24,000 bases of DNA, from assembly GCF_052117125.1 (NCBI RefSeq), contig NZ_JBQKJT010000001.1, positions 46,684-70,683 on the forward strand, read 5' to 3'. The position numbers and the translations under genes are program-made. This document shows, in pieces, positions 1-22,609 of the stretch; position 1 is the first letter of the stretch; each line of letters opens with the position of its first letter. The notes beneath the pieces were generated by a model, which did not search any database, was not told the DNA's origin, and saw only the letters and a program-made list of their open reading frames with translations. This DNA comes from Candidatus Avoscillospira sp. LCP25S3_F1. GTDB lineage: Bacteria > Bacillota > Clostridia > Oscillospirales > Oscillospiraceae.

Positions 1-2198
1 ATGTCCTTGTCCGTTGCTTGGTCCGGGTCCCAAAGGTCAAATGAGTGCTCTGACTCAAATACTCGAGTTAATCTTTCCGCAAACGCCTTTACTGATAAGC
101 GGTAATTTCCATTTGTCCTCATTTCCTTTACAACACGGAAAATACCACGCCGCCGGAGAAACTCTTGATAGGATTTCTCCATATAATTCGCAAAGAATGC
201 TGCTTCACTTCTGCTATCAGAGAAACACAGAAATTGTTTTGCTTTTTCCTTTAACTCAGGTTTTTTGATATTTCTCACTTGAGCAAAAGGATCATCCGTC
301 CATTGGATCGCCTCCTTGTCTGAGTTTTCTGCAGGTATTACGACTTCTGCATCTGGAAGCTGCTCAAAAAGCTCCGTACACAGAACCGCTGTAGCAGCAT
401 CAGAACCCAGATAGAAGCTGCGAAAACTTCCATATCCGCAAGCCGGACATTTGGCAATTTTCTTACCTTTCGTTCGATTTACACGCTTAAGATGGATATA
501 TTCCGCTTTTTTACAATCACAAATCGAACCCAAAACAATATCTGCTTTGGTGCCCATCTTCCCGCATTGCGTGCAAATTACAAAATCATTTTCACCTTGA
601 TCTTCCAATGCTTCTCCTTCTGCATCTTCGATGCCCATATCTTTCAATTCGGCATCATCCCACAGAAGAAAAAACTCGCAATCGTCGGGATCTTGTTCCG
701 ACTTCCTGGAAACCTGCCGATACTGGCCGCATTCATTTTTTCCGACCAGTGCAATCCGACCACAATCCTGACAAATTGCGATTTCAAATACGCCCTGCCC
801 CTGTTCGTTGCGCTCCCTGCGCTTCAAATAGAGCCTTTTGGGATTTCCCAATGTAATGTAAGCTCCCTCCAACGCCCGGACAAAGAAATGATATTTGGCT
901 TTGATAAGGCTGGCACCATTTTTCTCCGCCGCAGTGCAAACTGCCACAAAATCAATCAGTTCTTCCTTTGAGATGCCCAAAGACTTTCTGATTGTATCGA
1001 TTGTTTCCGGCATTATAGTTGCACATCTAAAACGGTAAAAAAGGTCGCAGTGCAGCAAAAATTCATAGATTTTTTCCTCTGTATCCCCATTGGGAGCATA
1101 ATCCTCGATACCGTACTTTTGCAGTATTTCCCCCAACGGGAGTCGCTTTTCCGCAATCTCCTTAAAAATAGCAACTGGAACATCCAATCGTTCCTTGATG
1201 GCCGGACTGGCATCCTGAGAGCGGATAATATTCTCCGGGTAAAATTCTACGCCACAAAGATTTTTTCCAAAATCCACAATATCTTGATTGGCATCCTCTC
1301 CCCCAAGTGTAGCACTGGTCAGAATATATTGCACACTGCTGTTTCCAATCCGGGCACGCAGGCGACGCATAAGCATAGAAGTCTCCATGCCAGTTGTTCC
1401 TTTATATACATGCGCTTCATCCAAAACCACAAAGTGAAGTCTTGCGCTGGAAAAGACTTTATCATCTTTTGGACGAAGCAGCATGTATTCCAACATGGAA
1501 TAGTTGGTAATCAATATGTGGGGCGGCGTCTGCTGCATTTCCTCTCTGGACAATATTTCATTGGTCAACGGCTCTGGAAATTCTGCATTGATACTGTTTT
1601 TACGATATTGCTCCCGAGCCTTTGCCCTGGTATATTCTGTATTTCCGTTATAAAGACCAAACGTAATATCTGGATAATTACGCAAAAGTCTGCGCATTCG
1701 TTTGATCTGGTCATTGGCCAGCGCATTCATGGGATAGATAATGATGGCGCGAACGCCGTTCACGCTCAGTGTGCCTACTTCTTTTTCCTTCAAAAGTGAA
1801 TGGAGGATTGGAAGCAAAAAACATTCCGTTTTGCCAGAACCTGTTCCTGTGGTAACTACAAGATTATTTCCAGCTGCTGCTTTTTTTAGTGCTTCTACCT
1901 GATGCAGATACAAAGAGCGTTCCAGCTTCAGCTCACGCTTCTTTTCTGCAACCGGCTCCAGCTCTGCAAATTCTCTACTGGCAATGCCACTGGCTATCAA
2001 CTGAGAGAGACTTTCGCCGGTTTTGTAGGACCCGCTCACATCCAGGTATGGTCCCTTGGCCACAAATCCTTCTTTCTCTAATTGTGTCCGCAGCTCTTTG
2101 GCATACTCTTTGTCTGCAATGTCAAAACTGGTGGTAATGTAGTCCACATAGCTTTGCTTTATGTTGTCAGACGCCACAATTGGGTCAAATCGGTTCAA
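1..2198 (-). CDS. Superfamily-2 DEAD/DEAH-box helicase, first ~732 codons (3' end beyond window start); YprA/DrmA/DruE-like with zinc-ribbon insertions
   Basis: Open minus-strand frame from TTG 2198 to the window edge. The TTG overlaps the upstream stop as TTGA, with AGAGGA 8 nt upstream. It is absent from the ORF track because it has no stop in the window. My translation shows Walker A TTGTGSGKTE (GTGSGKT = 1827-1847), HILITNYSMLEYMLLRP, motif II VVLDEAH (DEAH = 1410-1421) and motif III TSATL. These are followed by CxxC pairs (CQDCGR, CTQCGK, CPACGY) and CFSDSRSEAAF at the start of the second RecA lobe. Confidence 0.85.
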   Translation of the reverse strand, partial: MNRFDPIVASDNIKQSYVDYITTSFDIADKEYAKELRTQLEKEGFVAKGPYLDVSGSYKTGESLSQLIASGIASREFAELEPVAEKKRELKLERSLYLHQVEALKKAAAGNNLVVTTGTGSGKTECFLLPILHSLLKEKEVGTLSVNGVRAIIIYPMNALANDQIKRMRRLLRNYPDITFGLYNGNTEYTRAKAREQYRKNSINAEFPEPLTNEILSREEMQQTPPHILITNYSMLEYMLLRPKDDKVFSSARLHFVVLDEAHVYKGTTGMETSMLMRRLRARIGNSSVQYILTSATLGGEDANQDIVDFGKNLCGVEFYPENIIRSQDASPAIKERLDVPVAIFKEIAEKRLPLGEILQKYGIEDYAPNGDTEEKIYEFLLHCDLFYRFRCATIMPETIDTIRKSLGISKEELIDFVAVCTAAEKNGASLIKAKYHFFVRALEGAYITLGNPKRLYLKRRERNEQGQGVFEIAICQDCGRIALVGKNECGQYRQVSRKSEQDPDDCEFFLLWDDAELKDMGIEDAEGEALEDQGENDFVICTQCGKMGTKADIVLGSICDCKKAEYIHLKRVNRTKGKKIAKCPACGYGSFRSFYLGSDAATAVLCTELFEQLPDAEVVIPAENSDKEAIQWTDDPFAQVRNIKKPELKEKAKQFLCFSDSRSEAAFFANYMEKSYQEFLRRRGIFRVVKEMRTNGNYRLSVKAFAERLTRVFESEHSFDLWDPDQATDKD

Positions 2199-3010
2199 AA
2201 ATCATCTTCCTCTCTGAATGCAAACTCATCAGCAATGGGAAATCTTTTCCACGCTTCTTCCGGTGGACAATCCCATTTTCTATTTTTTATGCGCACATAT
2301 CCTTTTTCCAGATACACTTTTGTATCTACATCAAGCAGCAGCGGCTCTCCGTCTGCATTGTAAACTTTTACTCGATTACCCTGTACAACGCAGAAGGACA
2401 CTGGGTTAATGTTTTCGTACTGTTCATTCTCCGGGTCATTGTTCATATAGTTCCATCGTTGATCCGGAGCACGAAATGAGAGCACGCCTTCATACGTCGG
2501 AACTGGAGGTTCAAACTCTCCGTCAAAGTCACGCATACCAATGTATTCAATGTCAAAAATAACCGCATCATTGTAGTGGAACTTTGCCATCTCTATTTTC
2601 CGTGTTTCACAGGACCAGAACCACACTTTCATAAGGCGAACAAATTTCCCATCAAACCTACATTCAGGCCGTTCTTCAATTTGGAACGTTTCTTCCCAAA
2701 CCAACTGGCGGCGATCTCCAACAACAAAAGGATTATCATTCGGCAGGTCAAGAAATACCTTGCATCCATAACTCCCCGGCTTGCAGGAAAAGTTTTTTTC
2801 AAAAGGCTTTCCGGGCTGAAGTTGTCTATAGATCCACGGATCATTCTGAACATCATTTTCCAATTCCACTGTAAATTTTGGAGAACCTGGGCCTATAAAG
2901 TTTGAGTCAGGTTCCCATATGATACATGTGTTATCACGGATCAATGGCGAGGTCAGAAACGCAGGAGTAAAATATACATCTGCTACGGGGGCTGATTCTG
3001 GAAAGACCAT
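2195..3010 (-). CDS. hypothetical protein (271 aa), translationally coupled to the helicase
   Basis: ORF track. Its stop at 2195-2197 overlaps the helicase TTG start. I recognise no motif in it. The ATG at 3010 is immediately preceded by an in-frame TGA. Confidence 0.65.
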   Translation of the reverse strand: MVFPESAPVADVYFTPAFLTSPLIRDNTCIIWEPDSNFIGPGSPKFTVELENDVQNDPWIYRQLQPGKPFEKNFSCKPGSYGCKVFLDLPNDNPFVVGDRRQLVWEETFQIEERPECRFDGKFVRLMKVWFWSCETRKIEMAKFHYNDAVIFDIEYIGMRDFDGEFEPPVPTYEGVLSFRAPDQRWNYMNNDPENEQYENINPVSFCVVQGNRVKVYNADGEPLLLDVDTKVYLEKGYVRIKNRKWDCPPEEAWKRFPIADEFAFREEDDF

Positions 3011-3179
3011 TCATCCAGCGGCAGACCAGGCCGTTATCCAGATAAAAGTCCTGTTCCTCTTTCTGGTTAAAAAAACTGGCAAAGAGTTCATAGAGCAAAT
3101 CGGTCTGGCTCATATTGCGGTCATCACTGATATAGCGGCGGATAATCGCCATAATCGAGCAGAAATCACATCGCTCCAT
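2934..3179 (-). CDS. small hypothetical protein (81 aa), first gene of the helicase operon
   Basis: ATG at 3179 is preceded by GGGAGGG plus 5 nt. The ORF-track start 3206 is an upstream upper bound. It overlaps the next ORF by 77 nt in another frame. Confidence 0.5.
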   Translation of the reverse strand: MERCDFCSIMAIIRRYISDDRNMSQTDLLYELFASFFNQKEEQDFYLDNGLVCRWMNGLSRISPRSRCIFYSCVSDLAIDP

Positions 3180-3342
3180 AAATACCCTCCCTTCTGCTTT
3201 TGTCAATTTGCGGTCAACTCCCGCTCAATGCAAGTCAGTCCAGTTCTTGATACACTGAAACCACAACAGAGGTCCCAACCCGCTCCTGAAAAACATTGGG
3301 TATAGCAGGCAGCCTCTCCCTCATAGATTGCACTATCGGGAG

Positions 3343-3555
3343 GTGTGTGGTATCAGCAGAAAAAGCGCTCCAATCCATGTGATTGTCCATGCCCCAAAAA
3401 CAGAAGCCGGACAGCTGGAACTGGCGAAACGCGTTGCCGGTGTCCATGCCGATCTGGTGCATCGCTACATACAAAAGCTGCGTTGCCCCACAGAGGAAAA
3501 AGCAGCGTTATTGGATGCCGTCATTGCAACCGTCAAAAAGAACGCAGGAGATTGA
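3343..3555 (+). CDS. conserved small protein, copy 1 (about 66-70 aa); start codon uncertain
   Basis: The frame is open 3328-3555. The last 66 codons are 59/66 identical to ORF 17941-18153. Codon differences between the two copies are roughly 10 synonymous vs 7 replacement, which argues for real coding. In-frame GTG 3343 abuts GGGAGG (3338-3343) and ATC 3352 lies 8 nt after it, so the initiation codon is unresolved. Confidence 0.6.
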   Translation: MCGISRKSAPIHVIVHAPKTEAGQLELAKRVAGVHADLVHRYIQKLRCPTEEKAALLDAVIATVKKNAGD

Positions 3556-3724
3556 ACCCGTGTGGGTTTGATTTCCTGGGCATTTCGCAAGACGCCTCAC
3601 CATACAGGTTACACCAGTTTTCCCTATTTTTAGCAATTTATATTGTAGGATGTGTGTTACTTGATCGCAAGAGAATCTAGCAAAAATTTACAGATTATTT
3701 TCATCTATGTTTTCCCTTCATAGC

Positions 3725-3772
3725 AAAATAGCAGATGGTCAAACCTGCTGTGGTTTGACCATCTGCTATTTT
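3725..3772. terminator. bidirectional rho-independent terminator
   Basis: Perfect 21-nt arms aaaatagcagatggtcaaacc / ggtttgaccatctgctatttt with a 6-nt loop. A-run and T-run flanks lie between convergent genes. Confidence 0.8.
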
Positions 3773-3779
3773 TATTGGG

Positions 3780-4070
3780 TTATTTTCCAAACAAATCGCT
3801 ATGGGTTCCGGTTCTGGCCAAAGTCAGAACCAGCACACCGTTTTCAATACGGTAAATCAACAGCCAGTCCGGCCCGATATGGCATTCCCGAAAACCACCC
3901 CAGTTCCCGGTCAGTGCATGATCCCGGTGTTTCTCCGCCAACGGTTCATCGTTGGCCAATGCCGTGATGATGGTATCCAGCAGCTCCAGGTTCAACCCAC
4001 GTTTTCTGGCCTGTTTGTAGTCCTTTTTGAAGGCTGTGGTCAATTTGACGGTATATTTCATAGAGCTCAT
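3780..4070 (-). CDS. yafQ: type II toxin, RelE/YafQ-family mRNA interferase
   Basis: MKYTVKLTTAFKKDYK...HALTGNWGGFRECHIGPDWLLIYRI...ARTGTHSDLFGK matches the YafQ pattern (..RTGTHAALFG). ATG 4070 overlaps the antitoxin stop as ATGA. An alternative ATG lies at 4061. Confidence 0.85.
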   Translation of the reverse strand: MSSMKYTVKLTTAFKKDYKQARKRGLNLELLDTIITALANDEPLAEKHRDHALTGNWGGFRECHIGPDWLLIYRIENGVLVLTLARTGTHSDLFGK

Positions 4071-4345
4071 GCCTTCAAGTCCGCAAACAATTCATCCAGG
4101 TTCGTATACCCTTTCACCGAAGGGTCCCTGGCAATGCGCTCTGCCTCCAGCATGGCCGCCACCGTCTCCCGATTGGGCTGGTTCAGCGAGATTTCAAAGG
4201 GAATACCGCCTTCCCGGAGGGCCTGCCGCACAAAAATATTGAATGCGGTGGTCAGGTTCATGCCCAGTTCGGCAAACAGTGCATCGGCCTGGGCCTTGAG
4301 GTCTGCATCCATGCGGATGCTGATATTGGTTGTGTTGTTGGCCAT
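4067..4345 (-). CDS. dinJ: type II antitoxin, RelB/DinJ family
   Basis: MANNTTNISIRMDADLKAQADALFAELGMNLTTAFNIFVRQALREGGIPFE is a ribbon-helix-helix DinJ-like N-terminus. ATG 4345 is preceded by AAGGAG plus 8 nt. The gene sits directly upstream of the toxin. Confidence 0.85.
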   Translation of the reverse strand: MANNTTNISIRMDADLKAQADALFAELGMNLTTAFNIFVRQALREGGIPFEISLNQPNRETVAAMLEAERIARDPSVKGYTNLDELFADLKA

Positions 4346-4448
4346 TGGCTCCACTCCTTCCTTTGATATCTCTATTGTATTCTGTTTGCACGAGAATTAC
4401 AATATATTGCACGAAAATTTTTTGTTGTCTTTGAATCTACAACCATCA

Positions 4449-4476
4449 TTGAAAGTTTGTTACGTTATGATATAAT
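4449..4476 (+). promoter_or_regulatory. sigma-A-type promoter in front of the recombinase 5' fragment
   Basis: TTGAAA (4449-4454), a 16-nt spacer, then TGA-TATAAT (extended -10, 4468-4476). AAGGAGG at 4502-4508 and ATG at 4516 follow. Confidence 0.55.
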
Positions 4477-4756: not shown

Positions 4757-6478
<1,722 letters not shown>

Positions 6479-6533
6479 TTAAATTATACCATGCACCGCT
6501 GCCCGTGTCATGTCCAAAATATGAAAAAACGCC

Positions 6534-6701
6534 CTATTTTCGGGCGTTTCCAGCGTTCTGTTCCATATCCTTGCGAATAAGTTTTTTAATCTTTTTGTCC
6601 AGAGTGTCCGTAGCCCGTTCACTTGCTGACGAACAGACAAGATAAGTTACTTTTCCAATTTTATGTTCCGTTGTAGTAACGGGTATCGTATGCTGCGACA
6701 A
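6534..6701 (-). CDS. small hypothetical protein (55 aa) upstream of the recombinase
   Basis: TTG 6701 is preceded by GAAAGGGGG plus 7 nt. The product ..EHKIGKVTYLVCSSASERATDTLDKKIKKLIRKDM has the look of small proteins that accompany clostridial serine-recombinase transposons. I cannot name the family. Confidence 0.4.
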   Translation of the reverse strand: MSQHTIPVTTTEHKIGKVTYLVCSSASERATDTLDKKIKKLIRKDMEQNAGNARK

Positions 6702-7131
6702 AGAAAAGCCCCCTTTCTTTCGCAATCAGGTAATACAAGTTTATGAATAGGGGCAAGTCCACTATTCAGCGAAAAATGGGCGTTCATCAGACGGTTGGTA
6801 GCACAACCTCACGGGAATTTCACCCCGTCCCATGCTTGTGGGTGCGCCGCGCAATGCTTTGAGGGCGTTCAACGCGGGAGTATCATTATGTATTCTGCGC
6901 GTCGTCGCCCACGGGCTGCTATCCCGTTTTACGGCGTAGGTATAAATCGCTCGGCTTTTCCTCATAAAGAAAAAGCGTCATGGCGTACCCGCCGCGTAGC
7001 TCGGCGCAAAAGGAATGTATCTGATTTGCCCTATGCTGCGCCGCTTTTAATCAAGTGACGCTTTCTTTGTCAAGGTACAAGAGAGGGTTTCAGTTTGCCG
7101 CCACGGAAAGGGGGAACGGGGCGGCTAACAA

Positions 7132-7374
7132 TCAAAACCGAAAATCCAAAATAGCGCGGATCAGCCGTGAGCGCAAACGGTCGTAAATATCCCGGTCAAT
7201 CCCGTAATATGTATTGCCGCGTTCGTCGCGGAGCTTGCGGATTGACAGGGCAGAGATTTGACGCTCATAATGCTGTAATACCAAGCCGATTGCTTCCGGG
7301 TCGCCTGCATTGGCAGCAACGATCAGCGGATAAGGCAGTAAACCGCGCTCGTCGTAATCACTGTTCATCTTCAT
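7132..7374 (-). CDS. helix-turn-helix protein of the conjugative-transposon regulatory type (80 aa)
   Basis: ATG 7374 is preceded by GGAGGA plus 8 nt and overlaps the end of the sigma gene. The sequence pattern IVAANAGDPEAIGLVLQHYERQI...LIRAILDF is paralogous to ORF 16295-16540. Confidence 0.65.
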   Translation of the reverse strand: MKMNSDYDERGLLPYPLIVAANAGDPEAIGLVLQHYERQISALSIRKLRDERGNTYYGIDRDIYDRLRSRLIRAILDFRF

Positions 7375-7936
7375 AAGCGCGTTCCTCCAAATAGTTTCTA
7401 AGCCGTTCAAAAGAGCTTGTCCGGCGATACTGTATCGTGCTTCGGGGGATATTGTGGAGCTTCGCAATTTCGGCGTCGCTCATGCCCTCAAAGTAATAAA
7501 GCAGTATGACGTTTCGCTTTTCTTCCGGCAAAGTCCGCAGAGCTTCGGCAAGCAGCTTTGGGGTAATTTTCTTTCCTGCCACATGAAAAGAACCGTCGTC
7601 CTTTTCCTCGTCGTCAAAATAACTGTCAACCGTGAAAAGGCTATTTTCTTCTTGCGTGGTAAGGTCGGAAAAAGTGACTTCCCGCAACTGATGGCGTTTT
7701 ACGTCGCGGTGGGCATTGCTCGCTTCGCACCGAATGACTTTTTTACAAAAGCCGTTAAATGCACAGCGGATTTCCCATTGGCTACGGTCAGGCTCGTCCA
7801 TACGATCAGCTCCTTTCCCGTCTGTGAAAGTGGTTGATTGTTGGTTTTCCCCTTTCACTTGCCACACCACCGCATTTTGAAAACTGCCAAACGAAAACAG
7901 CGGATTTTCAGAAAAATTTTTAATTTTTTTTGCCAT
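7358..7936 (-). CDS. sigma-70 family (ECF-like) factor, region 4 recognisable
   Basis: The C-terminus LRTLPEEKRNVILLYYFEGMSDAEIAKLHNIPRSTIQYRRTSSFERLRNYL is a sigma region-4 HTH. ATG 7936 is preceded by AGGAGG plus 8 nt. Confidence 0.8.
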   Translation of the reverse strand: MAKKIKNFSENPLFSFGSFQNAVVWQVKGENQQSTTFTDGKGADRMDEPDRSQWEIRCAFNGFCKKVIRCEASNAHRDVKRHQLREVTFSDLTTQEENSLFTVDSYFDDEEKDDGSFHVAGKKITPKLLAEALRTLPEEKRNVILLYYFEGMSDAEIAKLHNIPRSTIQYRRTSSFERLRNYLEERAYEDEQ

Positions 7937-8123
7937 GATAAATACCTCCTGTCCGATTTGCGTAAACCAACGTGTCACGGACAGAAGCAGGCGGGGAACG
8001 ACAACGGGGATAGATTTGTAAAGCAGCAAAAGCAGCTTTATTTCAGCCCCCTAAACCGTTCGACAAATGGCGCAATTTTCGGTATTTTTCGTTCTGTTCC
8101 TCTTTCTCTCAACAATTTTCGCA

Positions 8124-8175
8124 GAACAAAAGAAAACGCCCGATTTAAGGTTTTTTCAACCTCAAATCGGGCGTT
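8124..8175 (-). terminator. rho-independent terminator (minus strand)
   Basis: 12-bp stem aacgcccgattt / aaatcgggcgtt (8135-8146 / 8164-8175), followed on the minus strand by ttttcttttg. Confidence 0.7.
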
Positions 8176-8284
8176 GCGTTTCCATATTCGATTGGGTGGA
8201 TTAGGACAGATAAAGAAATATTGCATAAAATTTCCCCTCCCTAAAAAATCCGTAGGTGGGGCAGCTTTTTAGCTATACCACCGG

Positions 8285-8325
8285 CAAAACAAAGAGGGCG
8301 GCGGGGCAAAATGCCTCGCCGCCCC
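8285..8325 (-). terminator. rho-independent terminator directly after the DGR target gene
   Basis: GC stem 8295-8306 / 8314-8325 (10 of 12 paired), followed on the minus strand by tctttgttttg. Confidence 0.6.
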
Positions 8326-8356
8326 TGCGGTTGTTACAAAACGAACTTGTTATGTG

Positions 8357-11300
8357 TTATACAAGCTGCGGTAAACTTTCTTCTTCCTTTTGCTCACGTC
8401 GTCGGATTACGGTCAATGCAACAATAGCAGCCAAGGAAAGAAGCATGGTAGAGAGCCAAAGTCCTATATTACTGCTGTCGCCGGTCTGCGGGCTGGAAAT
8501 GTGCTGTGTCCAGCCGCCACCGCTGCCGGTTCCGCCTGTGCCGCCATTCCCGCCGGGAACAACAGGCACAAGATTGTTTTTCTCAATGAAGTTTTGGAGC
8601 ATAGCCGCAATTTCAGCGCGGGTAGCGGTGCCTTTCGGGTCAAGTATTCCATTGCCCTTGCCGCTCATTACGCCGCTGCCAACTGCCCACTTCATAGCTT
8701 CCTGCGCCCAAGGGGACAAATCCCCGGCGTCTGTAAAGCCGGACAGGTCGCCGCTGGCGGTTGTGTCATAGCCCTTAAACTTCGCATAGTTGTAGAAAAT
8801 CACGGCAAGCTGTTCACGGGTCACAGGATCGCCCGGACCAAACAGGTTATCGCCATATCCCTGCATAATGCCGTTTTGCTGTACCCAAAGAACTGCGTCA
8901 TAGTACCAATCTGTACCCGGACCGTATGGCACATCGGTAAACGGGTTGGTATTCTCCACGGCGGGGCTTCCTGCCATGCGATAGAAAATCGTTGCAATCT
9001 GTGCGCGGGTGGTTGCGTCGTTCGGGGAGAATGTGGTTGCGCTGGTGCCGTTCATCAGGTTATTTTGGTAAACGAATATAACAGCTTCATAGAACCAATC
9101 GTCCGGGCGAACATCGGTAAACGGATTATTTACGCCGGTATCCGGGTTATCCTTTGCAAATACCGCTTCGATGGTGTGTTTCTTCTGCACGTCCTCAAAG
9201 GTGTAGCTTGTGACTGCGCCGACGCTCTTTCCATCTACCAGCACATCGGAAATGTGATAGCCGCTGTCCGGGGTAATGGTAAAGGTTTTGTCCGTATCTT
9301 CCCGGACGCTGACGCTGCCGGACGGAGAGATAGAGCCGCCCGTTCCTGCGCTGGCGGTAATGGTGTAATAGTCATAGCTGGAACCGCCGCCACCGCCGTT
9401 ATAACTCCAAGCTGCCGTTATCGTCGTATCGGCTGCGGGCATGGTAAAGGTGGTGCTTGCGCTGGAAGCGTCGGTAAAGGTGCCGCCGTTTGAGGAAGTC
9501 CAGCCGTTAAAGCGGTAATTGCTGCGGCTGCCCGCGTCAATATGGATAGCTTCGCCCGCGGGATATTCACCGCCGGTTGTGCTGCCGCTGCCGCCGTTCA
9601 GATTGACGGTAAGGGTATAGGTGTCAAGCACTTCAAAGGAGAGTTTCACGCTGGCGCTTGTGTTGTTGCTGCCGGAAATGGTAAGCGTTTCGGAATAGTC
9701 GCCCGCGCCAAGCCTGGTTTTGGGTTGGGCGGTAAAGCTCGCCGTACCATTTGGGGCAAGGGTGGCGGTATCATTCGTAAAGCCCTCTCCCGCTGTAATG
9801 ATGTAGTTCGTGCTGGTGGGCAGATCAACCGTTACAGTTTGGTTGCCGGTATTGGTAATGGTCACTTTTTTCGCGGCGGGGGCTTCCGTATAGCTCTCGG
9901 TGACGGTGCCAAAATCCCAGCTCTCTGTATCGGCGGAAATTGCATAGACCGGCGCGATATAGGCGGGTATGCTGATTTTCAGCACATCGCTGATATTCCC
10001 CGCCGCGTCTTGCACGACAACCGCCACATACTGGGTGTTTGCGGTGATACTGTCCAGCTCGATCTCGTTTTCTCCCGCCTTGCACGCCTGCTTGGTGTCC
10101 TGTGCGGCAATTTCCGCATTTGTCAGCGTGATTTCCGTATCCTGCGCGATATAGTAGCAGGTGCCTGCTTCGTCGCTGGTAAACTTCACCGTCGCGGTGG
10201 TGTCGCTGTCGCGGGTAGCCGAGCCATTGGAAAGCGTCGGGGCAGTGGTGTCATTTGAAACAGTAAGGCTAACCGTTTCAAACGCGCTGGCGTAATCGGT
10301 CAGTTTGGTATCGTCGTTTGCACCGCCGTTATATTGTTCGCTGAACACATTAAGGGTATAGGTTCCGTCTACAAGGGAAGTCGGAATTGTAATCTCCACT
10401 TGCCCCTCCGCACTCGTCGGCTGCGTAATTCTACCATAATATTGTGCGCCGCTATCGTCCGCAATAATGACGGAAATATATTCGTTGGGGGCGGTGTCAG
10501 CGTTATAGACCGTAGCCCCGGTGTAATTCAGCGTAATGGTATCGCCGGGCTTGCCGCTGGCGGTTTCTTCCGTTACGGAGAACTGGCGGCTGCTATCCAG
10601 CAAGGTCAGCTTCCATTCGCTGCCGTCATAATCGTCAATTTTAAAAATCGCGTCGGCGGCTTCGCCGCCTTGATTACCGCCGCCGTTGGCGGCGGGGATT
10701 TTGCCGCCTTCGGCGGCAGATGTGAAGAGGACAGAGTTCAGATCTAAATTAAAAGCGGGACGAGCAGCCCAGTCATAGGTCACGATGTAGTAGTACACAA
10801 TCCCATAAGTGAGGACCGCGCCCGCATAGTAGGTAATGAATGCGCCAGGCGAGCGGAGCCACCACACACCGGCGCTATTGCCATAATTGGCAATACGCGT
10901 ATTGTCATCGGTAAAACCGTATGCGCTGTTTTCCGCTTCCTCTGCCGAGAGGAAAAATACCTTGTCCCCGTTTAGGATATTTTCAGAGGCGGCAAATGGT
11001 ACGCTATATGTACTGCTGGTAAATGCTCCATCGCTTTTCGTGGTTGCAAGCACCGCGCCCTGCTCGCCCTCGGAAAAATTGCCGTTGTAAAAGGTTCTAC
11101 ACCAGTCCTGCGCCGTACTGCCTTGCCATACGTTGCTGCCGTTTCCGCTGTTATCAAAATACACATCTCCGAAACTGCCTGTTCCAAGCAGCGCGTCGGA
11201 GAGCAGGAAAAGGCCGCTTCCCCCGGTGTTGGTCTGGTCGTCCAAAACCCGCCATTTGATTGGGTTTTCCTCCCATGTCCCGAAATAGATGTTATCGGCC

Positions 11301-11452
11301 TGCCCGCCGCTGATATTGGCGGCAGTCCCGCTGTCCACAAGCTGTATCGCCTTGCCGGTATCTGTTCCCGCCGCAAAAGCGACCTGTGGCAAGAGCCCTG
11401 CCACAAGACAGATGGCAAGCAGTAAGCTGATTATTTTTCGTTTCGGTTTCAT
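8357..11452 (-). CDS. DGR target: secreted multidomain cell-surface protein (1031 aa) with SLH domains and a sortase signal
   Basis: ATG 11452 (GAAGGA upstream) gives the signal peptide [29 protein letters not shown]. The N-proximal module (IKWRVLDD...VFFLSAEEA...GVWWLRSP...[10 protein letters not shown]) contains the VR. An Ig-like region and a Listeria-Bacteroides-type repeat ([16 protein letters not shown]) follow. Three SLH repeats (FTDV..DW.Y.AV, about 8579-9131) come next. The C-terminus has SPQTG (8480-8494), a hydrophobic helix and an RRREQK tail. Confidence 0.9.
10655..10717 (-). promoter_or_regulatory. three short GC hairpins 38-100 nt downstream of the VR (possible DGR target-recognition structures)
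   Basis: ggcggc-ttc-gccgcc (10655-10669), ccgccgcc-gtt-ggcggcgg (10677-10695) and gccgcc-ttc-ggcggc (10703-10717). Confidence 0.45.
10755..10876 (-). repeat. DGR variable repeat (VR)
   Basis: 122 nt aligned without gaps to 12842-12963 (offset 2087). There are 21 mismatches, 18 of them at TR adenines on the coding (minus) strand. Confidence 0.9.
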
Positions 11453-11483
11453 TTTATGTCCTTCTGTCCTTTTCTTCACATCT

Positions 11484-12563
11484 TTATGCGTTTTCGGGCG
11501 TTTCACCCGGAACTGCCATTACTTCTCCTTTCGGGGCTTTTGTCAGTACAAACTTTCCATATATCTTCGCTTGCAGCTTCCATGTATGCCCATGCTGCAA
11601 ATGCCCGTCGTAGCTTGCAAGGCTGCGCTTGATTGCGTCAAAATCCATCTCCCCGCTGCGGTATTTCTCTTGAAAGGCTTTCAGCCGCCTCTTAAACCGC
11701 CGCTTATTGCTTGTCCGAAGCCGCCGTATGACCTTGCCCGTATCGGTCAGATAAAACCTCCAGCCGAGATAATCCACGCCCTCCGAAACGGGGAAAATCT
11801 GCGTTTTCTCGTTAAACTCAAGTTTCAGCTTTTCAGCCGCAAACGCCCGGATTTCCGCAAGGCAGGTTTTTAAGTGTTCTTTATCCTCATGCAGCAAAAT
11901 CAAATCGTCCATATACCGGGTATAGTATTTGATTTTGTACTTTTCCTTAATGATACGGTCTATCCGGTCAAGATAGTACAGGGCAAACCATTGGCTTGAC
12001 TGATTTCCCATCGGCAGCCCTTTTCCCGTATCGGCGTTAAAGCTGTCGATGACCTGATACAGAAACGTCAAAACCTCTTTATCGGGAAAACGCCGGAGTA
12101 AGTACTTCAATACGCCGTGGTCGATACTGTCAAAATATTTTCGCACGTCGCATTTCAGAAAATATCCCTTTGTGCCATGCTCTTTGTAAAACGCCTGTAA
12201 AAACCCTGTCAAACGTTTCATGGCAAAATGCGTCCCCTTATTTTCCCGGCAAGCCGCGCAATCGTAAATCAACCGTTTTTCAAAATACGGCTTCAATACG
12301 TTGTCGCATAGGCTGTGCTGCACCACACGTCCCCGAAAAGAGAGGGCTTGTATTTCCCGCTTCTTCGGGTCGTAAATCATAAAGCGGTGGTAGGGCGGCG
12401 TTTGATAGCGTCTGTTCTCCAACTCATCGTGCAGCTTCCAGAGGTTTTCCGCAAGGTTTAGTTCAAACTCGATCACTTCCCTTTTTGTACGCTTGCACCG
12501 CGCCGCCATTTTATATGCCCGGTACAGGTTTTCAAACTGATATATTTTCTCATACTCCGTCAT
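11484..12563 (-). CDS. DGR reverse transcriptase
   Basis: [54 protein letters not shown] (the DGR-type xGNxxSQ motif) and [14 protein letters not shown] 12563 is preceded by AAGGAG plus 10 nt. Upstream in-frame starts at 12614 and 12632 lack a ribosome-binding site. Confidence 0.9.
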
Positions 12564-12841
12564 GCGGACTATGCTCCTTATCTCACCGCCGGGAAAGAGC
12601 GTTTCAAAGGCCATAATGGGCTGCTCTTTCAAAGAAACCGAAAGCGTCCTGCCGGGCTTGCTCTGCCGCTTGCCCCGTTTGCGTCCGGCTGCTCCGGCGG
12701 CATGTGTTTTTCCGCGCTTTGCTTCTCCATGACACCCCTGCGCGAAAGGGAATAGGGTTCCTTTGCCTTATGCAAGCAAGCCTTTTTTCCGGCCTGCACG
12801 GGTATGACGCGCCTGCGGCATACTTCGGGCGATAAGGCGAC

Positions 12842-12963
12842 GCGGGACGAGCAGCCCAGTCATTGTTCACGTTGTTGTTGTTCACATTACCATTGTTGTT
12901 GACCGCGCCCGCATTGTTCGTATTGTTTGCGTTAGGCGAGCGGAGCCACCACACACCGGCGCT
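12842..12963 (-). repeat. DGR template repeat (TR)
   Basis: It contains 15 AAY codons (conceptual translation [41 protein letters not shown]). It lies 46 nt after avd and 278 nt before the RT start. Confidence 0.9.
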
Positions 12964-13009
12964 CAAAGTTTTTACAACCCTATCCCGTATATGATGAAAG
13001 CCTTTCGGC

Positions 13010-13399
13010 TTACACCCCCAGTCGTTTCCTGTCGCTGTTCAGCCATGCGCCCAGCATGTTCTGGCAGTCGTGGATTTTCTTTGTGATCTGCTCATACTGC
13101 TTTGGCAGTATGCAGCCCTGCTCCATAGATAGCTGCGCCATATAGCCCAATAGTTTCAATTCCGTCAAGGCTTGGTGCTGGAAGTCTATGCGCTGCTGCG
13201 CCTTTTCTCTGTCGCCCGCTTTGACAAACACCTCGTTTGCCCGGTACAGGTTTTCGATAATGTTCAGCGCGTAGTTTTGCAGCTTTGCAACAAGGGCAAA
13301 TCGGAAACGCTTTGGCGATTTATCCGTTACCGTCATCACATAGGAGCAGAGGTCTTTTGCTTTTGTGATAACCGCCAACTCGCTTTGATAAGCCGCCAT
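13010..13399 (-). CDS. avd: DGR accessory variability determinant (Avd-like four-helix-bundle protein, 129 aa)
   Basis: Size, predicted all-helical composition, a basic C-terminus (LGAWLNSDRKRLGV) and its position immediately 5' of the TR. AAGAGGA precedes the ATG at 13399. Confidence 0.75.
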   Translation of the reverse strand: MAAYQSELAVITKAKDLCSYVMTVTDKSPKRFRFALVAKLQNYALNIIENLYRANEVFVKAGDREKAQQRIDFQHQALTELKLLGYMAQLSMEQGCILPKQYEQITKKIHDCQNMLGAWLNSDRKRLGV

Positions 13400-13453
13400 G
13401 CTGATTCCTCTTTATACCTGTGTGGTTGAACTTTCCACAATTCTGCCATACGC

Positions 13454-13504
13454 AAAAAAGGCGCGTCACGCCTACGGCAAAGCCGTCGACGCAGCGCGCC
13501 TTTT
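13454..13504 (-). terminator. hairpin with flanking A/T runs upstream of avd (terminator-like on the minus strand)
   Basis: aaaaggcgcg (13456-13465) pairs with cgcgcctttt (13495-13504). The minus-strand reading ends in tttttt. Confidence 0.45.
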
Positions 13505-13550
13505 AACACGGTAATATTGAATTTTGAGCAGCACAAAAGGACAGACTTAT

Positions 13551-13612
<62 letters not shown>

Positions 13613-13864
13613 GTCAGTGTATTGCAAAGAAGCATTGCTTGTCAAGCCCCCTTTTCACGAAATCTTTCTGAAACGGTACCTTATGCACCCCCCGCTTTTG
13701 ATATAAAAATATAATATAAATTATATAGGAAAAGACCGCAAAAAGCAACACCATTCCCGAAAGGTTCACAAAATATTTCCCAAATCTGTAAGGTTCGCCC
13801 CTTTGGCAATTCCCGCCCCTGCGGTGTTGTAGAGAACAAAGGAAAAAGTTTCGTAGCAAGCATA

Positions 13865-13902
13865 GGAAAGGGGTACCCTTTCCGTATTTTCGCCCTCTGC
13901 GC
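13865..13902 (+). promoter_or_regulatory. candidate oriT (inverted repeat plus downstream GC-rich nick region)
   Basis: ggaaaggg-gta-ccctttcc (13865-13883) is followed by gtattttcgccctctgcgc, about 75 nt upstream of mobC. The layout resembles MOBQ-type oriTs (an IR, then ..GCGCCCT..). Confidence 0.35.
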
Positions 13903-13976
13903 TCTGCGGCGCGGCGGTTGAAAATTGCTTGTTGGGAAGCGTCCCAAACCCTCTAAGCAGAAAGGAGCGTCGGCGC

Positions 13977-17598: not shown

Positions 17599-17940
17599 AT
17601 GGGTGCAGTCTGGAAGTGTTACGCAGTAAAACGCTGTTTTTGGGGGAACAGGTATAAAGTCCTTGCCCTATCGCCGGATTTTCCCCCACTTCACACCGGA
17701 CGTGCGACTTTCACCGCATCCGGCGTTCCATCGATTGTTTTCACAAGCATTTAATCAATCTCCAAATGAAATACTATTATCGCCGATGGGTTTTATGTCC
17801 CGGATCGGCCCCCCAAGGCTCCGAAAGCCCAAAATGGCGGATTCCTGAAAAAACTGAAACCACAACAGAAGGTCCAACCCGCTCCGGGAAAACATCGGGT
17901 ATAGCAGACTACTACCCTCTCATAGATTGCCTATTGGGAG

Positions 17941-18995: not shown

Positions 18996-20816
18996 ATGCC
19001 CAACGAGTCAGATGCCATTGCCCTCTATTCCCGCAAGTCCCGGTTTACCGGCAAGGGCGAGAGCATTGGCAATCAGGTGGAGCTATGTAAAGAATATGTG
19101 CGGCTGCACTTTGGAGAGCAGGCCGCGGAACAGCTGGTTATCTACGAAGACGAAGGGTTTTCCGGCGGCAATTTGAACCGTCCGGCCTTCCGGCGCATGA
19201 TGGAAGCGGCCCGGCAGCGGAAGTTCCAAGCCATCATTGTCTACCGTCTCGACCGCATCAGCCGCAATGTCAGCGACTTTTCCGGCCTCATTGAAGAATT
19301 GTCTCGGTTGAATGTTTCCTTTATTTCCATCAAGGAGCAATTCGATACCAGCACCCCCATGGGCCGGGCCATGATGTACATTGCCTCTGTCTTTTCCCAG
19401 CTGGAGCGGGAAACCATTGCCGAACGCATTCGGGACAACATGCAGGAATTAGCCAAAACCGGCCGCTGGTTAGGCGGTACCACCCCCACCGGCTATGCCT
19501 CCGAAGCCGTCAAAAGCGTGACGGTGGACGGCAAAACGAAAAAGGCCTGCAAGTTAAAGTTGATTCCCGAAGAAGCGGAAATCATCAAAACCATTTTTGA
19601 CCTGTATCTGGAAACGGATTCTCTGACCATCACCGAAGCTCGGCTGATGCAGCGTGGAATTCAGACGAAAAGGGGCAATCATTTCACCCGCTTTTCTATC
19701 AAGTCCATTTTGCAGAACCCTGTCTATCTGATCGCCGACCAGGAGGCTTATGATTTCTTTCAGCAGCATGAAACGGACCTGTTTTCTGAGCAGAGCGAGT
19801 TTGACGGTATCCACGGCATAATGGCCTACAACCGTACCGACCAGGAAAAGGGTCGGGCCACCATCTATCTGCCTCCCAGCGACTGGATTGTGTCCGTGGG
19901 CAAGCATCCAGGGTTGATTCCCGGCAAGGCCTGGGTCGCCGTTCAAGAGTCTCTGGAGCGAAACAAATCGAAAGCCTTCCGCAAGCCCCGCAGCAATGAA
20001 GCGCTGCTGACAGGTCTGCTCTATTGCCGCTGCGGCGAACGGATGTACCCCAAGGTCAGCAAGCGGAAAACCGCCAACGGCAGCCCCGTCTATACCTATG
20101 TGTGCAAGTTGAAAGAGCGCAGCCAGCGCGCCCTCTGCAACAACAAAAATGCCAGTGGCAATCTGCTGGACCAGGCCGTTCTGGATCAGCTGAAGCTGCT
20201 CCAGGAGGATCAAGATACGTTTCTCGCCCAGTTGGAACAGAGCCGCAAATTCTACACCGGCAACCGTATGGACTACGAGCAGCGGCTGGATGCCCTGCGG
20301 GGAGAAAAACGTGACCTGGAAAAGAAGCTGGACGCTTTGGTGGATTCCCTGGCAGACCTGGCCGAGTCCGCTGCCCGCGGTCAGGTGTCCCGGCGTATCG
20401 AATCCCTCAGCAGCCAGTGCGACGATCTGGGTAAACGGATTCAGGAGTTGGAGGGGTTGACCTCCCAGCATGCCCTCAGTGATCTGGAGTTTGATCTCCT
20501 GCGGCAGCTGCTGGCTGTTTTCCGGGACGGCATGCAGGAAATGTCCCTGGAGCAGAAACGGGCTGCGGTTCGCACCGTGGTACGCAAAGTGGTCTGGGAT
20601 GGCATCCACGCCCATGTGGTACTGTTTGGCGTGCCGGATGATGAGATTGAATACCCGCCGTTCCCCTCCGACGGTTCTGACCCGGACGGCAACGATACCG
20701 ATGGCGAAACTGACGAACCTTCCACCTGCTCCGATGATGACTACGCAGAAAATCCATCGAATCCCGATGACTCCACCGACGGTACAAAAGCGCATTGGGG
20801 CGGGAATAGCAAATGA
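18996..20816 (+). CDS. large serine recombinase adjoining the sigK fragment (SpoIVCA-like role inferred)
   Basis: IALYSRKSRFTGKGESIGNQ, YRLDRISRNVSDF, the recombinase domain, zinc-ribbon CRCGERMY...YVCKLK...CNN, a coiled coil and an acidic tail. AAAGGAGG precedes the ATG. The stop codon lies inside sigK-homologous DNA. Confidence 0.9.
   Translation: MPNESDAIALYSRKSRFTGKGESIGNQVELCKEYVRLHFGEQAAEQLVIYEDEGFSGGNLNRPAFRRMMEAARQRKFQAIIVYRLDRISRNVSDFSGLIEELSRLNVSFISIKEQFDTSTPMGRAMMYIASVFSQLERETIAERIRDNMQELAKTGRWLGGTTPTGYASEAVKSVTVDGKTKKACKLKLIPEEAEIIKTIFDLYLETDSLTITEARLMQRGIQTKRGNHFTRFSIKSILQNPVYLIADQEAYDFFQQHETDLFSEQSEFDGIHGIMAYNRTDQEKGRATIYLPPSDWIVSVGKHPGLIPGKAWVAVQESLERNKSKAFRKPRSNEALLTGLLYCRCGERMYPKVSKRKTANGSPVYTYVCKLKERSQRALCNNKNASGNLLDQAVLDQLKLLQEDQDTFLAQLEQSRKFYTGNRMDYEQRLDALRGEKRDLEKKLDALVDSLADLAESAARGQVSRRIESLSSQCDDLGKRIQELEGLTSQHALSDLEFDLLRQLLAVFRDGMQEMSLEQKRAAVRTVVRKVVWDGIHAHVVLFGVPDDEIEYPPFPSDGSDPDGNDTDGETDEPSTCSDDDYAENPSNPDDSTDGTKAHWGGNSK
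19021..19174 (+). repeat. direct repeat, right copy (partner 4541-4694)
   Basis: See the left copy. Here the repeat is part of the intact recombinase gene. Confidence 0.95.
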
Positions 20817-21171
20817 AATCCTGATGCACTTTCGCAGCCAGAAAAAGTCCAGCGGCGACGTATCTCTGTCCGATTACATAGAAACGGGCAAGGACGGCAA
20901 CGCTCTTTCTCTGATGGACGTCATCTGCACCGATGATGATCTATTCGAGGACCTCAGCGCCCGGGAGAATGCCGCACGGCTCCACCGGGCCATGAAAGAG
21001 GTCCTGACGGACCGGGAATTGCTGGTGGTCCAGCTTCGGTATGGGCTGGGTGGCCGTAAACCCCTGACCCAGCGGGAGGTGGCCCAGCAATGCGGCATTT
21101 CCCGGTCCTATATCTCCCGCATTGAGAAAAAGGCCCTGCAAAAGCTGGAAGCAGCGTTCCGGGATTCCTGA
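20806..21171 (+). CDS. sigK: 3' segment of a split sporulation sigma factor K gene (spoIIIC-like); no start codon of its own
   Basis: IANEILMHFRSQKKSSGDVSLSDYIETGKDGNALSLMDVICTDDD...RELLVVQLRYGLGGRKPLTQREVAQQCGISRSYISRIEKKALQKL aligns with sigma-K regions 3-4 (B. subtilis [41 protein letters not shown]...[27 protein letters not shown]). Regions 1-2 are absent. Confidence 0.75.
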   Translation: MANEILMHFRSQKKSSGDVSLSDYIETGKDGNALSLMDVICTDDDLFEDLSARENAARLHRAMKEVLTDRELLVVQLRYGLGGRKPLTQREVAQQCGISRSYISRIEKKALQKLEAAFRDS

Positions 21172-21333
21172 TCCGAAACTTTACAAACGTTGCAGGTTTG
21201 TCCTATTGATTGAAATTGGTGCAGGGGACTTTTGTCCCCCGCACACCCCCCTGCTGCTCTCTTACAGCAGATTGTACAGATTGCCGGACAGTCCGATGGG
21301 AGGTTCCTCCTCCCTCCTGTCCGCAAAAGCCGG

Positions 21334-21380
21334 TTGACAAATCTCATTCTGTCTATTATATTAGTAATTGCTTAATTACT
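21334..21380 (+). promoter_or_regulatory. sigma-A promoter with an overlapping palindromic operator (probable ArsR site)
   Basis: TTGACA (21334-21339), a 17-nt spacer, TATATT (21357-21362), followed immediately by AGTAATT-gctt-AATTACT (21363-21380). Confidence 0.6.
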
Positions 21381-21403
21381 TAATTATTATGGAGGAACCC
21401 ACT

Positions 21404-21610
21404 ATGCCATCGAAACGACTGGCCGCCGTAGACAGCGGCCGCTGTGTGGCCTGCGGCAGCTGCTGTAAGGTCTGTCCCAAGGGAGCCGTCACCGTCTGGC
21501 GCGGCGTCTCCGCCGTAGTGGATGGTACGCTGTGCATCGGCTGCGGCAAGTGTCAAAAAGAATGCCCCGCCGGGGCCATCGTCCTCAACAACCGGGAGGC
21601 CGCCGTATGA
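21404..21610 (+). CDS. 2x[4Fe-4S] ferredoxin (68 aa)
   Basis: CVACGSCCKVCP and CIGCGKCQKECP cluster motifs. GGAGGA plus 7 nt precedes ATG 21404. Confidence 0.85.
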   Translation: MPSKRLAAVDSGRCVACGSCCKVCPKGAVTVWRGVSAVVDGTLCIGCGKCQKECPAGAIVLNNREAAV

Positions 21611-22248: not shown

Positions 22249-22531
22249 ATTGCAGGAACAGGCCAAAGCCGTGGCGGCCCTTCTGGGACAACTGGCCAAT
22301 GAAAACCGGCTGTTGATTCTCTGCGCCCTGCTGGAAGGACCCAAAACCGTGGGCCAGCTGGGCGAGGCCGTCCCCCACATCACCGGTCCGGCCCTGTCCC
22401 AACACCTGCAAAAGCTCCGGGCGGCGGGTCTGGTGGATGGCACCAAACACGGCCAGTTTGTGGAATACCAGATTGCCGACCAGCGGCTGTACGGCCTGAT
22501 GGAACGGCTGAAAGCCCTGTATTGCGCCTAA
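22241..22531 (+). CDS. ArsR/SmtB-family metalloregulator
   Basis: LGQLANENRLLILCALLEGPKTVGQLGEAVPHITGPALSQHLQKLRAAGLV is a winged HTH with the LxxxxRLxIL motif. It overlaps the upstream gene by 8 nt. Confidence 0.9.
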   Translation: MAELQEQAKAVAALLGQLANENRLLILCALLEGPKTVGQLGEAVPHITGPALSQHLQKLRAAGLVDGTKHGQFVEYQIADQRLYGLMERLKALYCA

Positions 22532-22537
22532 AAAAAC

Positions 22538-22579: not shown

Positions 22580-22609
22580 TTTTCTGGAACGTTTTCCGTC
22601 AAAAATCGT

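Follow-up and report, generated by a model that had tools for sequence, protein, structure and literature searches.

We analysed a 24,000-nucleotide stretch of DNA from Candidatus Avoscillospira sp. LCP25S3_F1 (NCBI RefSeq assembly GCF_052117125.1, contig NZ_JBQKJT010000001.1, positions 46,684 to 70,683 of the forward strand), hereafter the window. It very probably carries a complete and naturally active diversity-generating retroelement (DGR) that rewrites the DUF6273 module of a predicted cell-wall protein and resides on a putative mobilisable element. Its parts follow one another in the order avd, template repeat (TR), spacer, reverse transcriptase (RT) and target gene, all on the minus strand, and the variable repeat (VR) lies inside the target gene. 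All coordinates are positions in the window. The main parts of the cassette are the following.

13010-13399, minus strand: avd, accessory variability determinant, 129 amino acids (Pfam bAvd, PHROG 3206)

12842-12963, minus strand: TR, with 34 adenines and 15 AAY codons

12564-12841, minus strand: predicted non-coding spacer RNA (Sp), with GCCYGAA, the hairpin AAGGAACCCTATTCC (12749-12763), AAAACACATGCCG and GGACG (12682-12686)

11484-12632, minus strand: DGR reverse transcriptase, maximal open reading frame (ORF) of 382 amino acids, likely start ATG 12563 giving 359 amino acids (RVT_1, match to bRT)

8357-11452, minus strand: target gene, 1031 amino acids (Pfam domains and motif coordinates)

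10755-10876, minus strand: VR, coding for target residues 193-233, C-terminal in the DUF6273 module

The TR and VR are direct repeats of 122 nucleotides each, separated by 2087 nucleotides. They differ at 21 sites, 18 of which are adenines in the TR (13 A>T, 3 A>C and 2 A>G), and the remaining three mismatches, at non-A sites, all fall at codon position 3. Such a concentration on adenines (18/21, given 34 A per 122 nucleotides) is not expected by chance (P = 1.2×10−9, hypergeometric test). When each adenine of the TR is replaced by N, the resulting pattern matches only the TR and VR sites in the window and has no match in shuffled sequences. The VR is in frame within an ATG-started protein of 1031 residues (ORF 8357-11452), and all 15 of the TR asparagine (AAY) codons are changed in it. 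The flanking DWAARPA is the same in both repeats, and the upstream flank is likewise unchanged. An NNY codon encodes 15 amino acids and no stop, so that 15^15 (about 4×10^17) variants are available, and four more adenine-containing codons could push the number higher. Repeat search and alignment thus return exactly the repeats, coordinates and mismatch counts of the original prediction, which had been made from the letters of the window; its statements that every AAY codon is replaced and that about 15^15 variants are possible are also borne out.

The end of the VR has features expected of an initiation of mutagenic homing (IMH) site.

10755-10772, minus strand: IMH-like, A-free and GC-rich VR 3′ end (CTGGGCTGCTCGTCCCGC), overlapping the WAARPA codons

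The homology between the TR and VR stops at this end; the following 20 nucleotides are TTTTAATTTAGATC after the VR and GTCGCCTTATCGCC after the TR. The 18-nucleotide A-free end and the immediate divergence after it match the IMH versus IMH* arrangement. No GC-rich inverted repeat was found locally directly after the VR, as is the case for 66% of DGRs (Wu et al., PMC5758913). An ORF of 120 amino acids at 12604-12966 (minus strand) was considered as a gene and rejected, as it is the TR and spacer read in the frame of the VR; its weak DUF6273 match arises because the TR copies the VR. Gene callers annotate a 113-amino-acid version of this ORF in one related contig (L002:1168-1509; related loci and contigs are designated by L numbers).

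Evidence for natural activity comes from public assemblies, in a comparison made between samples and not inside one sample. The identical 382-residue RT is encoded on five metagenome contigs. Over about 2.1 kb covering the RT and the target 5′ end, L003 and L004 show 24 and 25 differences from the window, of which 23/24 and 23/25, respectively, are located inside the VR, leaving one or two elsewhere. Contigs that are about 99.9% identical over the RT and the target 5′ end therefore differ almost solely inside the VR. In one protein cluster, the first 202 residues of the target are exactly alike and the VR is different in each member. A flank-pattern scan of an independent collection added further VR-bearing contigs. 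Altogether, 12 distinct VR alleles were found on contigs with the lineage's common TR, and 220 of the 232 substitutions (95%) are at TR adenines, although A makes up no more than 34 of the 122 positions in the TR. Over the 12 contigs, all of which have different VRs, the common TR is invariant. This variation, confined to the VR and restricted to adenines while the TR stays invariant, is as mutagenic retrohoming predicts, and is not predicted by recombination or ordinary mutation. The DGR is naturally active at the population level, and the A-site-restricted polymorphism among related sequences that the original prediction had called for is observed.

It could be argued that VR diversity results from homologous recombination or gene conversion among cassettes, instead of adenine mutagenesis by the RT. 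The locus has clearly been shuffled by recombination, and the VRs of L001, L004 and L006 share their 3′ two-thirds and differ in the 5′ third only. Recombination cannot yield a base specificity in which 95% of the substitutions fall at TR adenines while the TR is invariant, however, and besides the TR there is one VR-like copy only in the window. We find this explanation hardly credible. The pattern among L001, L004 and L006 is in itself opposite to that of 3′-polar partial retrohoming; it may reflect recombination, selection or consensus assembly of mixed populations.

The cassette core encodes two proteins, the RT and Avd. The RT matches Pfam RVT_1 (73.5 bits) and PHROG 1423 (418 bits). Its closest solved relative is 8ub7_A (E = 3.8×10−51, 177 bits), which is brt of Bordetella phage BPP-1 (100% identity check), and group II and retron RTs score at most 59 bits. 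The residue R74 and the (I/M)GxxxSQ motif of bRT are both aligned in the window RT, in which two motifs were located.

11991-12011, minus strand: MGNQSSQ (residues 208-214 of the RT)

11904-11915, minus strand: YMDD (residues 240-243 of the RT)

None of the NCBIfam retron, DRT (Drt) and group II models reaches its curated cutoff on this RT, and all are far below. On these sequence comparisons, the enzyme is a DGR-type RT; the RTs of DGRs are closer to it than are those of group II introns, retrons or defence systems. Its start is most likely ATG 12563 (359 residues), which has AAGGAG 8 nucleotides upstream and is the form picked by gene callers on sister contigs; the alternative start at TTG 12632 (382 residues) was set aside in its favour. 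The target ATG at 11452 sits 31 nucleotides past the RT stop codon (11484-11486), in agreement with the coordinates first given for it. The 129-residue Avd matches Pfam bAvd PF22296 (40.8 bits, cutoff 40) and PHROG 3206 'Avd protein of DGR' (E = 2.5×10−22), and an Avd homolog is found upstream of the RT in most of the 39 genome loci with an RT homolog that make up our related-locus set. Its match to Avd is marginal by curated thresholds, though the libraries and the synteny agree on it. The Avd-like protein and the RT with MGNQSSQ and YMDD named in the original prediction are thus both present (Pfam, PHROG and the 8ub7_A match). A sequence search of the PDB with Avd and the target N-terminus as queries returned nothing meaningful.

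The spacer between the TR and the RT is a conserved structured RNA supported by covariation. It is about 210-280 nucleotides long, and its series of motifs (GCCYGAA, an AAGGAAY...RTTCC hairpin, AAAAYAYATGCYG and GGACG) is present in one copy per locus at 20 loci. The RNAalifold consensus of 14 spacer sequences has 26 pairs, 14 of which show compensatory changes. In this structure 89.8% of cells are paired, a proportion that drops to 40-52% on sliding the partners, and covariation scores 0.51, compared with 0.18 or less; the observed values were reached by 0 of 500 shuffles. A single-sequence fold of the TR and spacer is no more stable than shuffles (z = −0.24), so the structure is revealed only by comparative analysis. 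An Rfam scan gave no family for the spacer. One candidate pairing joins the spacer to the TR.

12845-12849, minus strand: TR 3′ end CGUCC, candidate template strand of a template:primer duplex, pairing with the spacer GGACG

The CGUCC:GGACG pairing can be formed in 12-13 of the 14 aligned loci, and it is invariant and hence gives no covariation. It may be the counterpart of the TR:Sp duplex of template and primer in BPP-1 (bioRxiv 10.1101/2023.10.23.563531), the source of this analogy. By the same reasoning, cDNA synthesis would be primed in cis from a priming nucleotide in the spacer.

The target has the following parts besides the VR.

11372-11452, minus strand: signal peptide of the Sec type (MKPKRK, hydrophobic stretch, AFA)

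about 10718-11299, minus strand: DUF6273 module, residues 97-237 (Pfam, 47 bits)

after DUF6273, minus strand: two InlB-B/Flg_new_2 repeats (Pfam Flg_new_2, 69 bits)

8588-9127, minus strand: three SLH domains (Pfam, 127 bits)

8480-8494, minus strand: SPQTG sorting motif (motif coordinates)

8378-8470, minus strand: transmembrane segment and RRREQK tail (motif coordinates)

By this anatomy the target is a predicted Gram-positive cell-wall protein, and it would be displayed on the surface. The three SLH domains, which would attach non-covalently, are combined with SPQTG, a transmembrane segment and a charged tail, the parts of a covalent sortase anchor (8378-9127); such a double anchor is uncommon. 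Faint Ig-like matches follow DUF6273 in target orthologs.

An AlphaFold2 model of residues 25-267, built with 47 homologs, has a core predicted local distance difference test (pLDDT) score of 91-98; in it the domain ends in beta-strands formed by the VR (pLDDT 95-98). In the alignment of the 47 sequences, the scaffold WWLRSP, G and RPAFNL is invariant or nearly so and the Asn-coded (AAY) positions vary. Among PDB folds, the sole significant match to the model is 9qa6, an IgA peptidase of Thomasclavelia ramosa (E = 2.6×10−9). A comparison with predicted viral structures gives 26 significant matches, of which most are 'DUF6273 domain-containing' proteins of gut phages, and DUF1566 proteins match weakly (E = 0.025-0.05). 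The target N-terminus also matches PHROG 10993 'Hoc-like head decoration' (E = 1.3×10−7). The VR could not be mapped onto the CLec1-3 classes of Wu et al. from their text. The original prediction had described a large surface protein, possibly with a C-type-lectin-like binding face, and suggested a structure prediction. The surface protein stands (signal peptide, three SLH domains and SPQTG), and the model is confident and places the VR on beta-strands; a C-type-lectin-like fold was not confirmed by the fold-library searches. Despite its N-terminal place in the protein, the VR sits at the C-terminal end of its own DUF6273 domain, and the VR face of this module would bind a ligand. To our knowledge, the VR lies at the C-terminal end of its own domain in all DGR targets.

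These results can be combined into the following mechanism. The TR-spacer transcript would fold into the conserved structure and bind the RT-Avd complex. The RT would copy the TR into cDNA, misincorporating opposite adenines, and the cDNA would replace the VR, with the 3′ boundary set by the A-free, GC-rich IMH-like end. As the outcome, the 15 Asn-coded positions and a few others would be rewritten in the C-terminal beta-strands and loops of the N-terminal DUF6273 ligand-binding module. The diversified module would be held on the Gram-positive wall by the three SLH domains and the SPQTG signal, with at least 4×10^17 variants of the binding site.

It is also evident that the window has a mosaic origin. 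A segment-by-segment comparison with the lineages of L006 and L057 shows that it is recombinant. The spacer, the RT, the target 5′ end and 100 nucleotides after the VR are 99.5-100% identical to the L006 lineage and 77-94% identical to L057. The reverse is seen for the mobC-avd spacer, the avd-TR gap, the target's SLH end and the sigma/HTH genes, which have 94-100% identity to L057 and are either 65-89% identical to L006 or unalignable with it. The avd gene and the middle of the target match either lineage poorly (about 80-85%). One junction of the recombination falls just 3′ of the TR, the other some 100 nucleotides 3′ of the VR (comparison of window 10650-12830 with the flanks 6461-10649 and 12842-13928). 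These results show that the block made up of the spacer, RT and DUF6273 has been exchanged between diverged elements. The window TR differs from the common TR by three codon-third differences (ACG, GGT and GCT), and all three variants are also present in the otherwise different TR of L057.

Several points weigh against the cassette being an active DGR. Twelve of the 232 VR substitutions are at non-A positions. The top NCBIfam match of the Avd protein, DivGenRetAVD, reaches 59.5 bits and is below the cutoff of 80. Several sister VR alleles are frameshifted (five distinct alleles, with net +1 or −1 indels). The TR-specific ACG at index 44 and GGT at index 74 are absent from the window VR, which keeps ACC and GGG, the states of the common (L006-type) TR. 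The L006-type TR presumably last wrote the window VR. Thus, two of the three non-A mismatches between the TR and VR exist because the window is recombinant, and the VR has not been fully rewritten since the exchange. It is mainly on account of this incomplete rewriting that we reserve a modest probability for quiescence of the copy in the window. One other assembly alone (L054, SRR33888784) has exactly the target of the window, and its VR is the same. Random drift of the TR was considered for the three non-A mismatches and rejected, as two of them are retained states of the common TR, the variants recur in L057 and the window is recombinant.

The retained common-TR states, the L057-type backbone joined to an L006-type spacer-RT-DUF6273 core, and the identical VR in the sole other sample with the exact target would all be explained if the cassette were intact but quiescent, its VR being a frozen ancestral retrohoming product joined to the present TR by recombination. 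We consider such quiescence improbable, as all ORFs and RNA motifs are intact and the 99.9% identical core block adjoins at least 11 other VR alleles in other samples. The VR also has the T of the TR at index 110, which would fit a partial rewrite of the 3′ end, although a single site is weak evidence. A naturally active DGR thus remains the preferred reading.

The frameshifted alleles are found in the VR regions of L045-L049 and L051-L053. The indels are located at or next to TR adenines, and typically one A of GTGAAC is lost; the allele of L051-L053 has a less simple pattern, in which the alignment places a deleted C as well. These frameshifts split the target into one ORF of 226-235 amino acids and another of about 800 amino acids. 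One allele is identical in two samples (L047 and L048), and another occurs on five contigs from different samples and assemblers (L051-L053). This recurrence across samples and assemblers indicates that the frameshifted alleles did not arise as errors of assembly. A frameshifted VR is likewise present in L007 (L007:8739-8860), which has an RT of 89% identity. The alleles found via the RT or via the flank-pattern scan of the independent collection are all in frame. The idea that frameshifted alleles predominate (7 of 12 in the P0001 protein cluster) was rejected as a sampling bias, because the cluster representative is a truncated protein.

The frameshifted alleles are real and persistent, and a selected OFF state and tolerated errors are both possible. 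The VR is about 200 codons into a gene of 1031 codons, so a one-nucleotide indel removes the whole stalk of about 800 residues together with the cell-wall anchor. Such frameshifts are reversible in principle because the TR is intact, and later retrohoming would restore the frame. We raise, as a speculative and rather unlikely proposal, that occasional skipping or insertion of one nucleotide by the RT at template adenines may make the DGR a reversible ON/OFF switch as well as a diversifier. The literature that we searched describes deletions at abasic sites and, within AAC repeats, indels whose length is a multiple of three, and does not mention one-nucleotide frameshifts in natural VRs.

We then consider how common this gene order is. 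A TR/VR pair was located in 20 of the 39 loci of the related set, and the order TR-RT-target is found in 12 of these 20, with the VR 0.6-0.8 kb past the RT stop (the counts leave out L007, with its frameshifted target, and L009, in which the target runs off the contig). The target starts within about 50 nucleotides of the RT end in most of the 12 loci, and 364 nucleotides from it in L023. In these 12 loci the VR is at residues 135-300 of a protein of 590-1657 amino acids and is followed by 370-1370 residues. The module WWLRSP...(A/V)RPAxxL is common to all Clostridia members of the set. A VR about 2 kb downstream of the TR and a target after the RT are thus the usual layout in this RT clade.

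In two of these 12 loci, L019 (8739-8870 and 12317-12447) and L029 (8613-8696 and 12176-12261), a single TR is matched by two VRs in a target of about 1650 amino acids, which has a VR-bearing WWLRSP module at both its N-terminal and its C-terminal side. The TR/VR pair of L027 (725-859 and 2844-2978) has just 16 of 34 mismatches on adenines, and L027 is probably a decaying DGR.

Published DGRs include this arrangement. The avd-TR-RT core corresponds to Architecture B1 of Wu et al. 2018 (PMC5758913), in which the position of the target is variable, and the window has avd, TR and RT on one strand and no further accessory gene. According to the same study, internal or N-terminal VRs are rare, yet they exist. 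In the tentaclins (Baykov et al. 2023, PMC10743442), the VR is near the 5′ end of its gene in an N-terminal DUF6273 C-lec-like domain, which is followed by Ig-like domains. The Toutatisvirus locus has Avd-TR-RT followed by a DUF6273+Ig target (bioRxiv 10.1101/2024.10.15.618418), and the Faecalibacterium prophages Lelie, Roos and Pioen have DUF6273 targets (bioRxiv 10.1101/2024.10.15.618418; PMC11792537). The gene order and the target domain are therefore already documented, and the layout is unusual relative to BPP-1 only. The original prediction was right that the mutagenic-retrohoming cassette is complete, and a VR near the N-terminus of a long protein is indeed rare overall. Its description of the layout as non-canonical and unusual holds only against BPP-1, since 12 of the 20 relatives share the order, and an N-terminal VR is the rule in this clade and is published for tentaclins.

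Two further features bear on transcription.

13616-13645, minus strand: promoter-like site TTGACA-18-TACACT upstream of avd, with 10/12 matches to the consensus

8135-8175, minus strand: terminator-like hairpin with an 18-bp stem and a T-run, about 180 nucleotides after the target stop (inverted repeat)

The promoter consensus scan found 10 sites where 5 are expected by chance, and the site at 13616-13645 is a candidate operon promoter. A scan between this site and the hairpin after the target found nothing convincing in the way of promoters or terminators. That the cassette and its target form one transcript, as had been proposed, is thus plausible. A perfect (TCTG/GACA) array of 15.5 copies (13551-13612) lies between the promoter-like site, which it directly follows, and avd. 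No relative has it save the sister contig L054, which breaks inside the array. This array could be a slipped-strand expression switch or could be incidental.

The cassette is cargo on a putative integrative mobilisable element of gut Clostridia. On one flank there are NikA/MobC and a MobA/VirD2 relaxase (Pfam). A sigma-70-region-4 protein, an HTH_16 protein and a large serine recombinase with DUF4368 are encoded on the other flank, which also has a pemK RNA motif. The gene types of Tn916/Tn5397-like modules (relaxase, Mob, sigma/HTH_16 pair and serine recombinase with DUF4368) are all present in the window. The synteny of relaxase, MobC, sigma, HTH_16 and recombinase recurs in L006, L007, L008, L034 and L045-L053, and in L045, a contig of 231 kb, chromosomal genes follow the recombinase. 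Named sources of related loci are the isolate Youxingia wuxianensis NSJ-64 (L008) and metagenome-assembled genomes (MAGs) that carry the labels Clostridiales, Christensenellaceae and Peptococcaceae. A megablast search of the plasmid and phage collections with the 5-kb cassette gave no match.

If the DGR were instead borne by a prophage, its target would be a phage receptor-binding or decoration protein, tentaclin or Hoc-like. The nearest phage RT is indeed that of nd12, a phage of the tentaclin study (43.8% identity), and both the PHROG 10993 match of the target N-terminus and the 26 significant fold matches to gut-phage DUF6273 proteins point in the same direction. Yet the 24-kb window has no recognisable phage genes for structure, packaging or lysis. 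Its cassette is flanked by a relaxase, NikA/MobC, the sigma/HTH_16 pair and serine recombinases, and a Sec signal peptide, three SLH domains and SPQTG are all found in the target. The phage collection gave no megablast match, and no close relative was found on the IMG/VR contigs scanned with the RT. A prophage origin is therefore very unlikely, and we keep to a mobilisable element as the carrier.

Other features were noticed around the element. The Rfam pemK RNA motif at 6809-6889 (minus strand; 53 bits, gathering threshold 34.8) lies between the HTH_16 gene and the serine recombinase, and no obvious pemK toxin gene is alongside. A match to a group II intron catalytic domain is located at 17648-17728 (minus strand; 46 bits, gathering threshold 40); the ORFs beside it have no Pfam match and no intron-encoded RT is apparent, so that an intron fragment or an intron lacking an ORF is probable. 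Another large serine recombinase, the second in the window (18996-20816), is encoded where the GC content rises from about 0.45-0.50 to 0.56-0.65, and chromosomal-looking genes such as a PfkB kinase lie beyond it (about 20000-24000). This region is probably the other end of the element, or else another element nested there. Pfam gave no matches for the ORFs at 492-4475.

Compared with the DGR of BPP-1 (mtd-avd-TR-brt), the window is alike in having Avd, a TR, a spacer RNA between the TR and the RT, an RT with GxxxSQ and YMDD, adenine-specific VR differences and an A-free, GC-rich IMH-like VR end. It differs in that the target is downstream of the RT, whereas the BPP-1 target is upstream of avd, and in that the VR is in the N-terminal DUF6273 of a 1031-residue wall protein, whereas the BPP-1 VR is at the C-terminus of a 381-residue tail-fibre protein. 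Moreover, no GC-rich hairpin follows the window VR, and the host of the cassette is a mobilisable element and not a phage. The gut-phage DUF6273 DGRs (tentaclin phages nd4 and nd12, Toutatisvirus and the Faecalibacterium prophages) likewise have the VR at the C-terminal end of an N-terminal DUF6273 followed by beta-sandwich domains, and Toutatisvirus has the same Avd-TR-RT-target order. These DGRs, unlike the window, are in phage genomes and have virion targets, and their RTs are about 39-44% identical to that of the window. In the window, mobilisation and recombinase genes flank the cassette, and the target has SLH domains and a sortase signal in addition to its signal peptide. Although its construction is that of a tentaclin, the target is better not classed as one, given its mobilisable-element context and its SLH and sortase anchors, with no phage genes or viral-contig relatives found.

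Two cellular proteins are also worth comparing. As summarised in PMC5758913, the DGR of Legionella pneumophila (LdtA) is borne on an integrative and conjugative element, and it resembles the window as a cellular DGR that is cargo of an integrative transferable element and diversifies a surface-exposed protein. As described there, LdtA differs in being a lipoprotein of a Gram-negative host with a C-terminal DUF1566-type VR and in having its target upstream of the core; the window has a Gram-positive host, an SLH and sortase anchor and an N-terminal DUF6273 VR. ThomasA of T. ramosa (9qa6; PMC12402451) shares with the target a signal peptide, an N-terminal DUF6273, beta-domains and a C-terminal SPXTG. 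It differs in having an M64 peptidase domain and is not known as a DGR target; its DUF6273 domain has no effect on catalysis (PMC12402451).

What differs in this case is the setting, which is less often described, with a putative mobilisable element of the relaxase and serine-recombinase type and a target anchored to the wall by SLH domains and SPQTG. The known mechanism of DGRs is unchanged, and the value of the case is that of a tractable example, with Youxingia wuxianensis NSJ-64 as a cultured carrier of a related cassette, and of the hypotheses on a frameshift-OFF state. The exchange of the spacer-RT-DUF6273 block shows that DGR cores and targets are re-assorted, and the 12 VR alleles on a near-identical background form an allele series for studying selection on the binding face. 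The element is found in several families of Clostridia (MAGs of Christensenellaceae and Peptococcaceae, unclassified Clostridiales MAGs and Youxingia). It represents a well-supported case of a natural DGR acting on a Gram-positive cell-wall protein rather than on a phage fibre, and it ties a hypervariable, presumably ligand-binding role to DUF6273, a poorly understood domain of surface proteins in gut Firmicutes, the IgA protease of T. ramosa among them.

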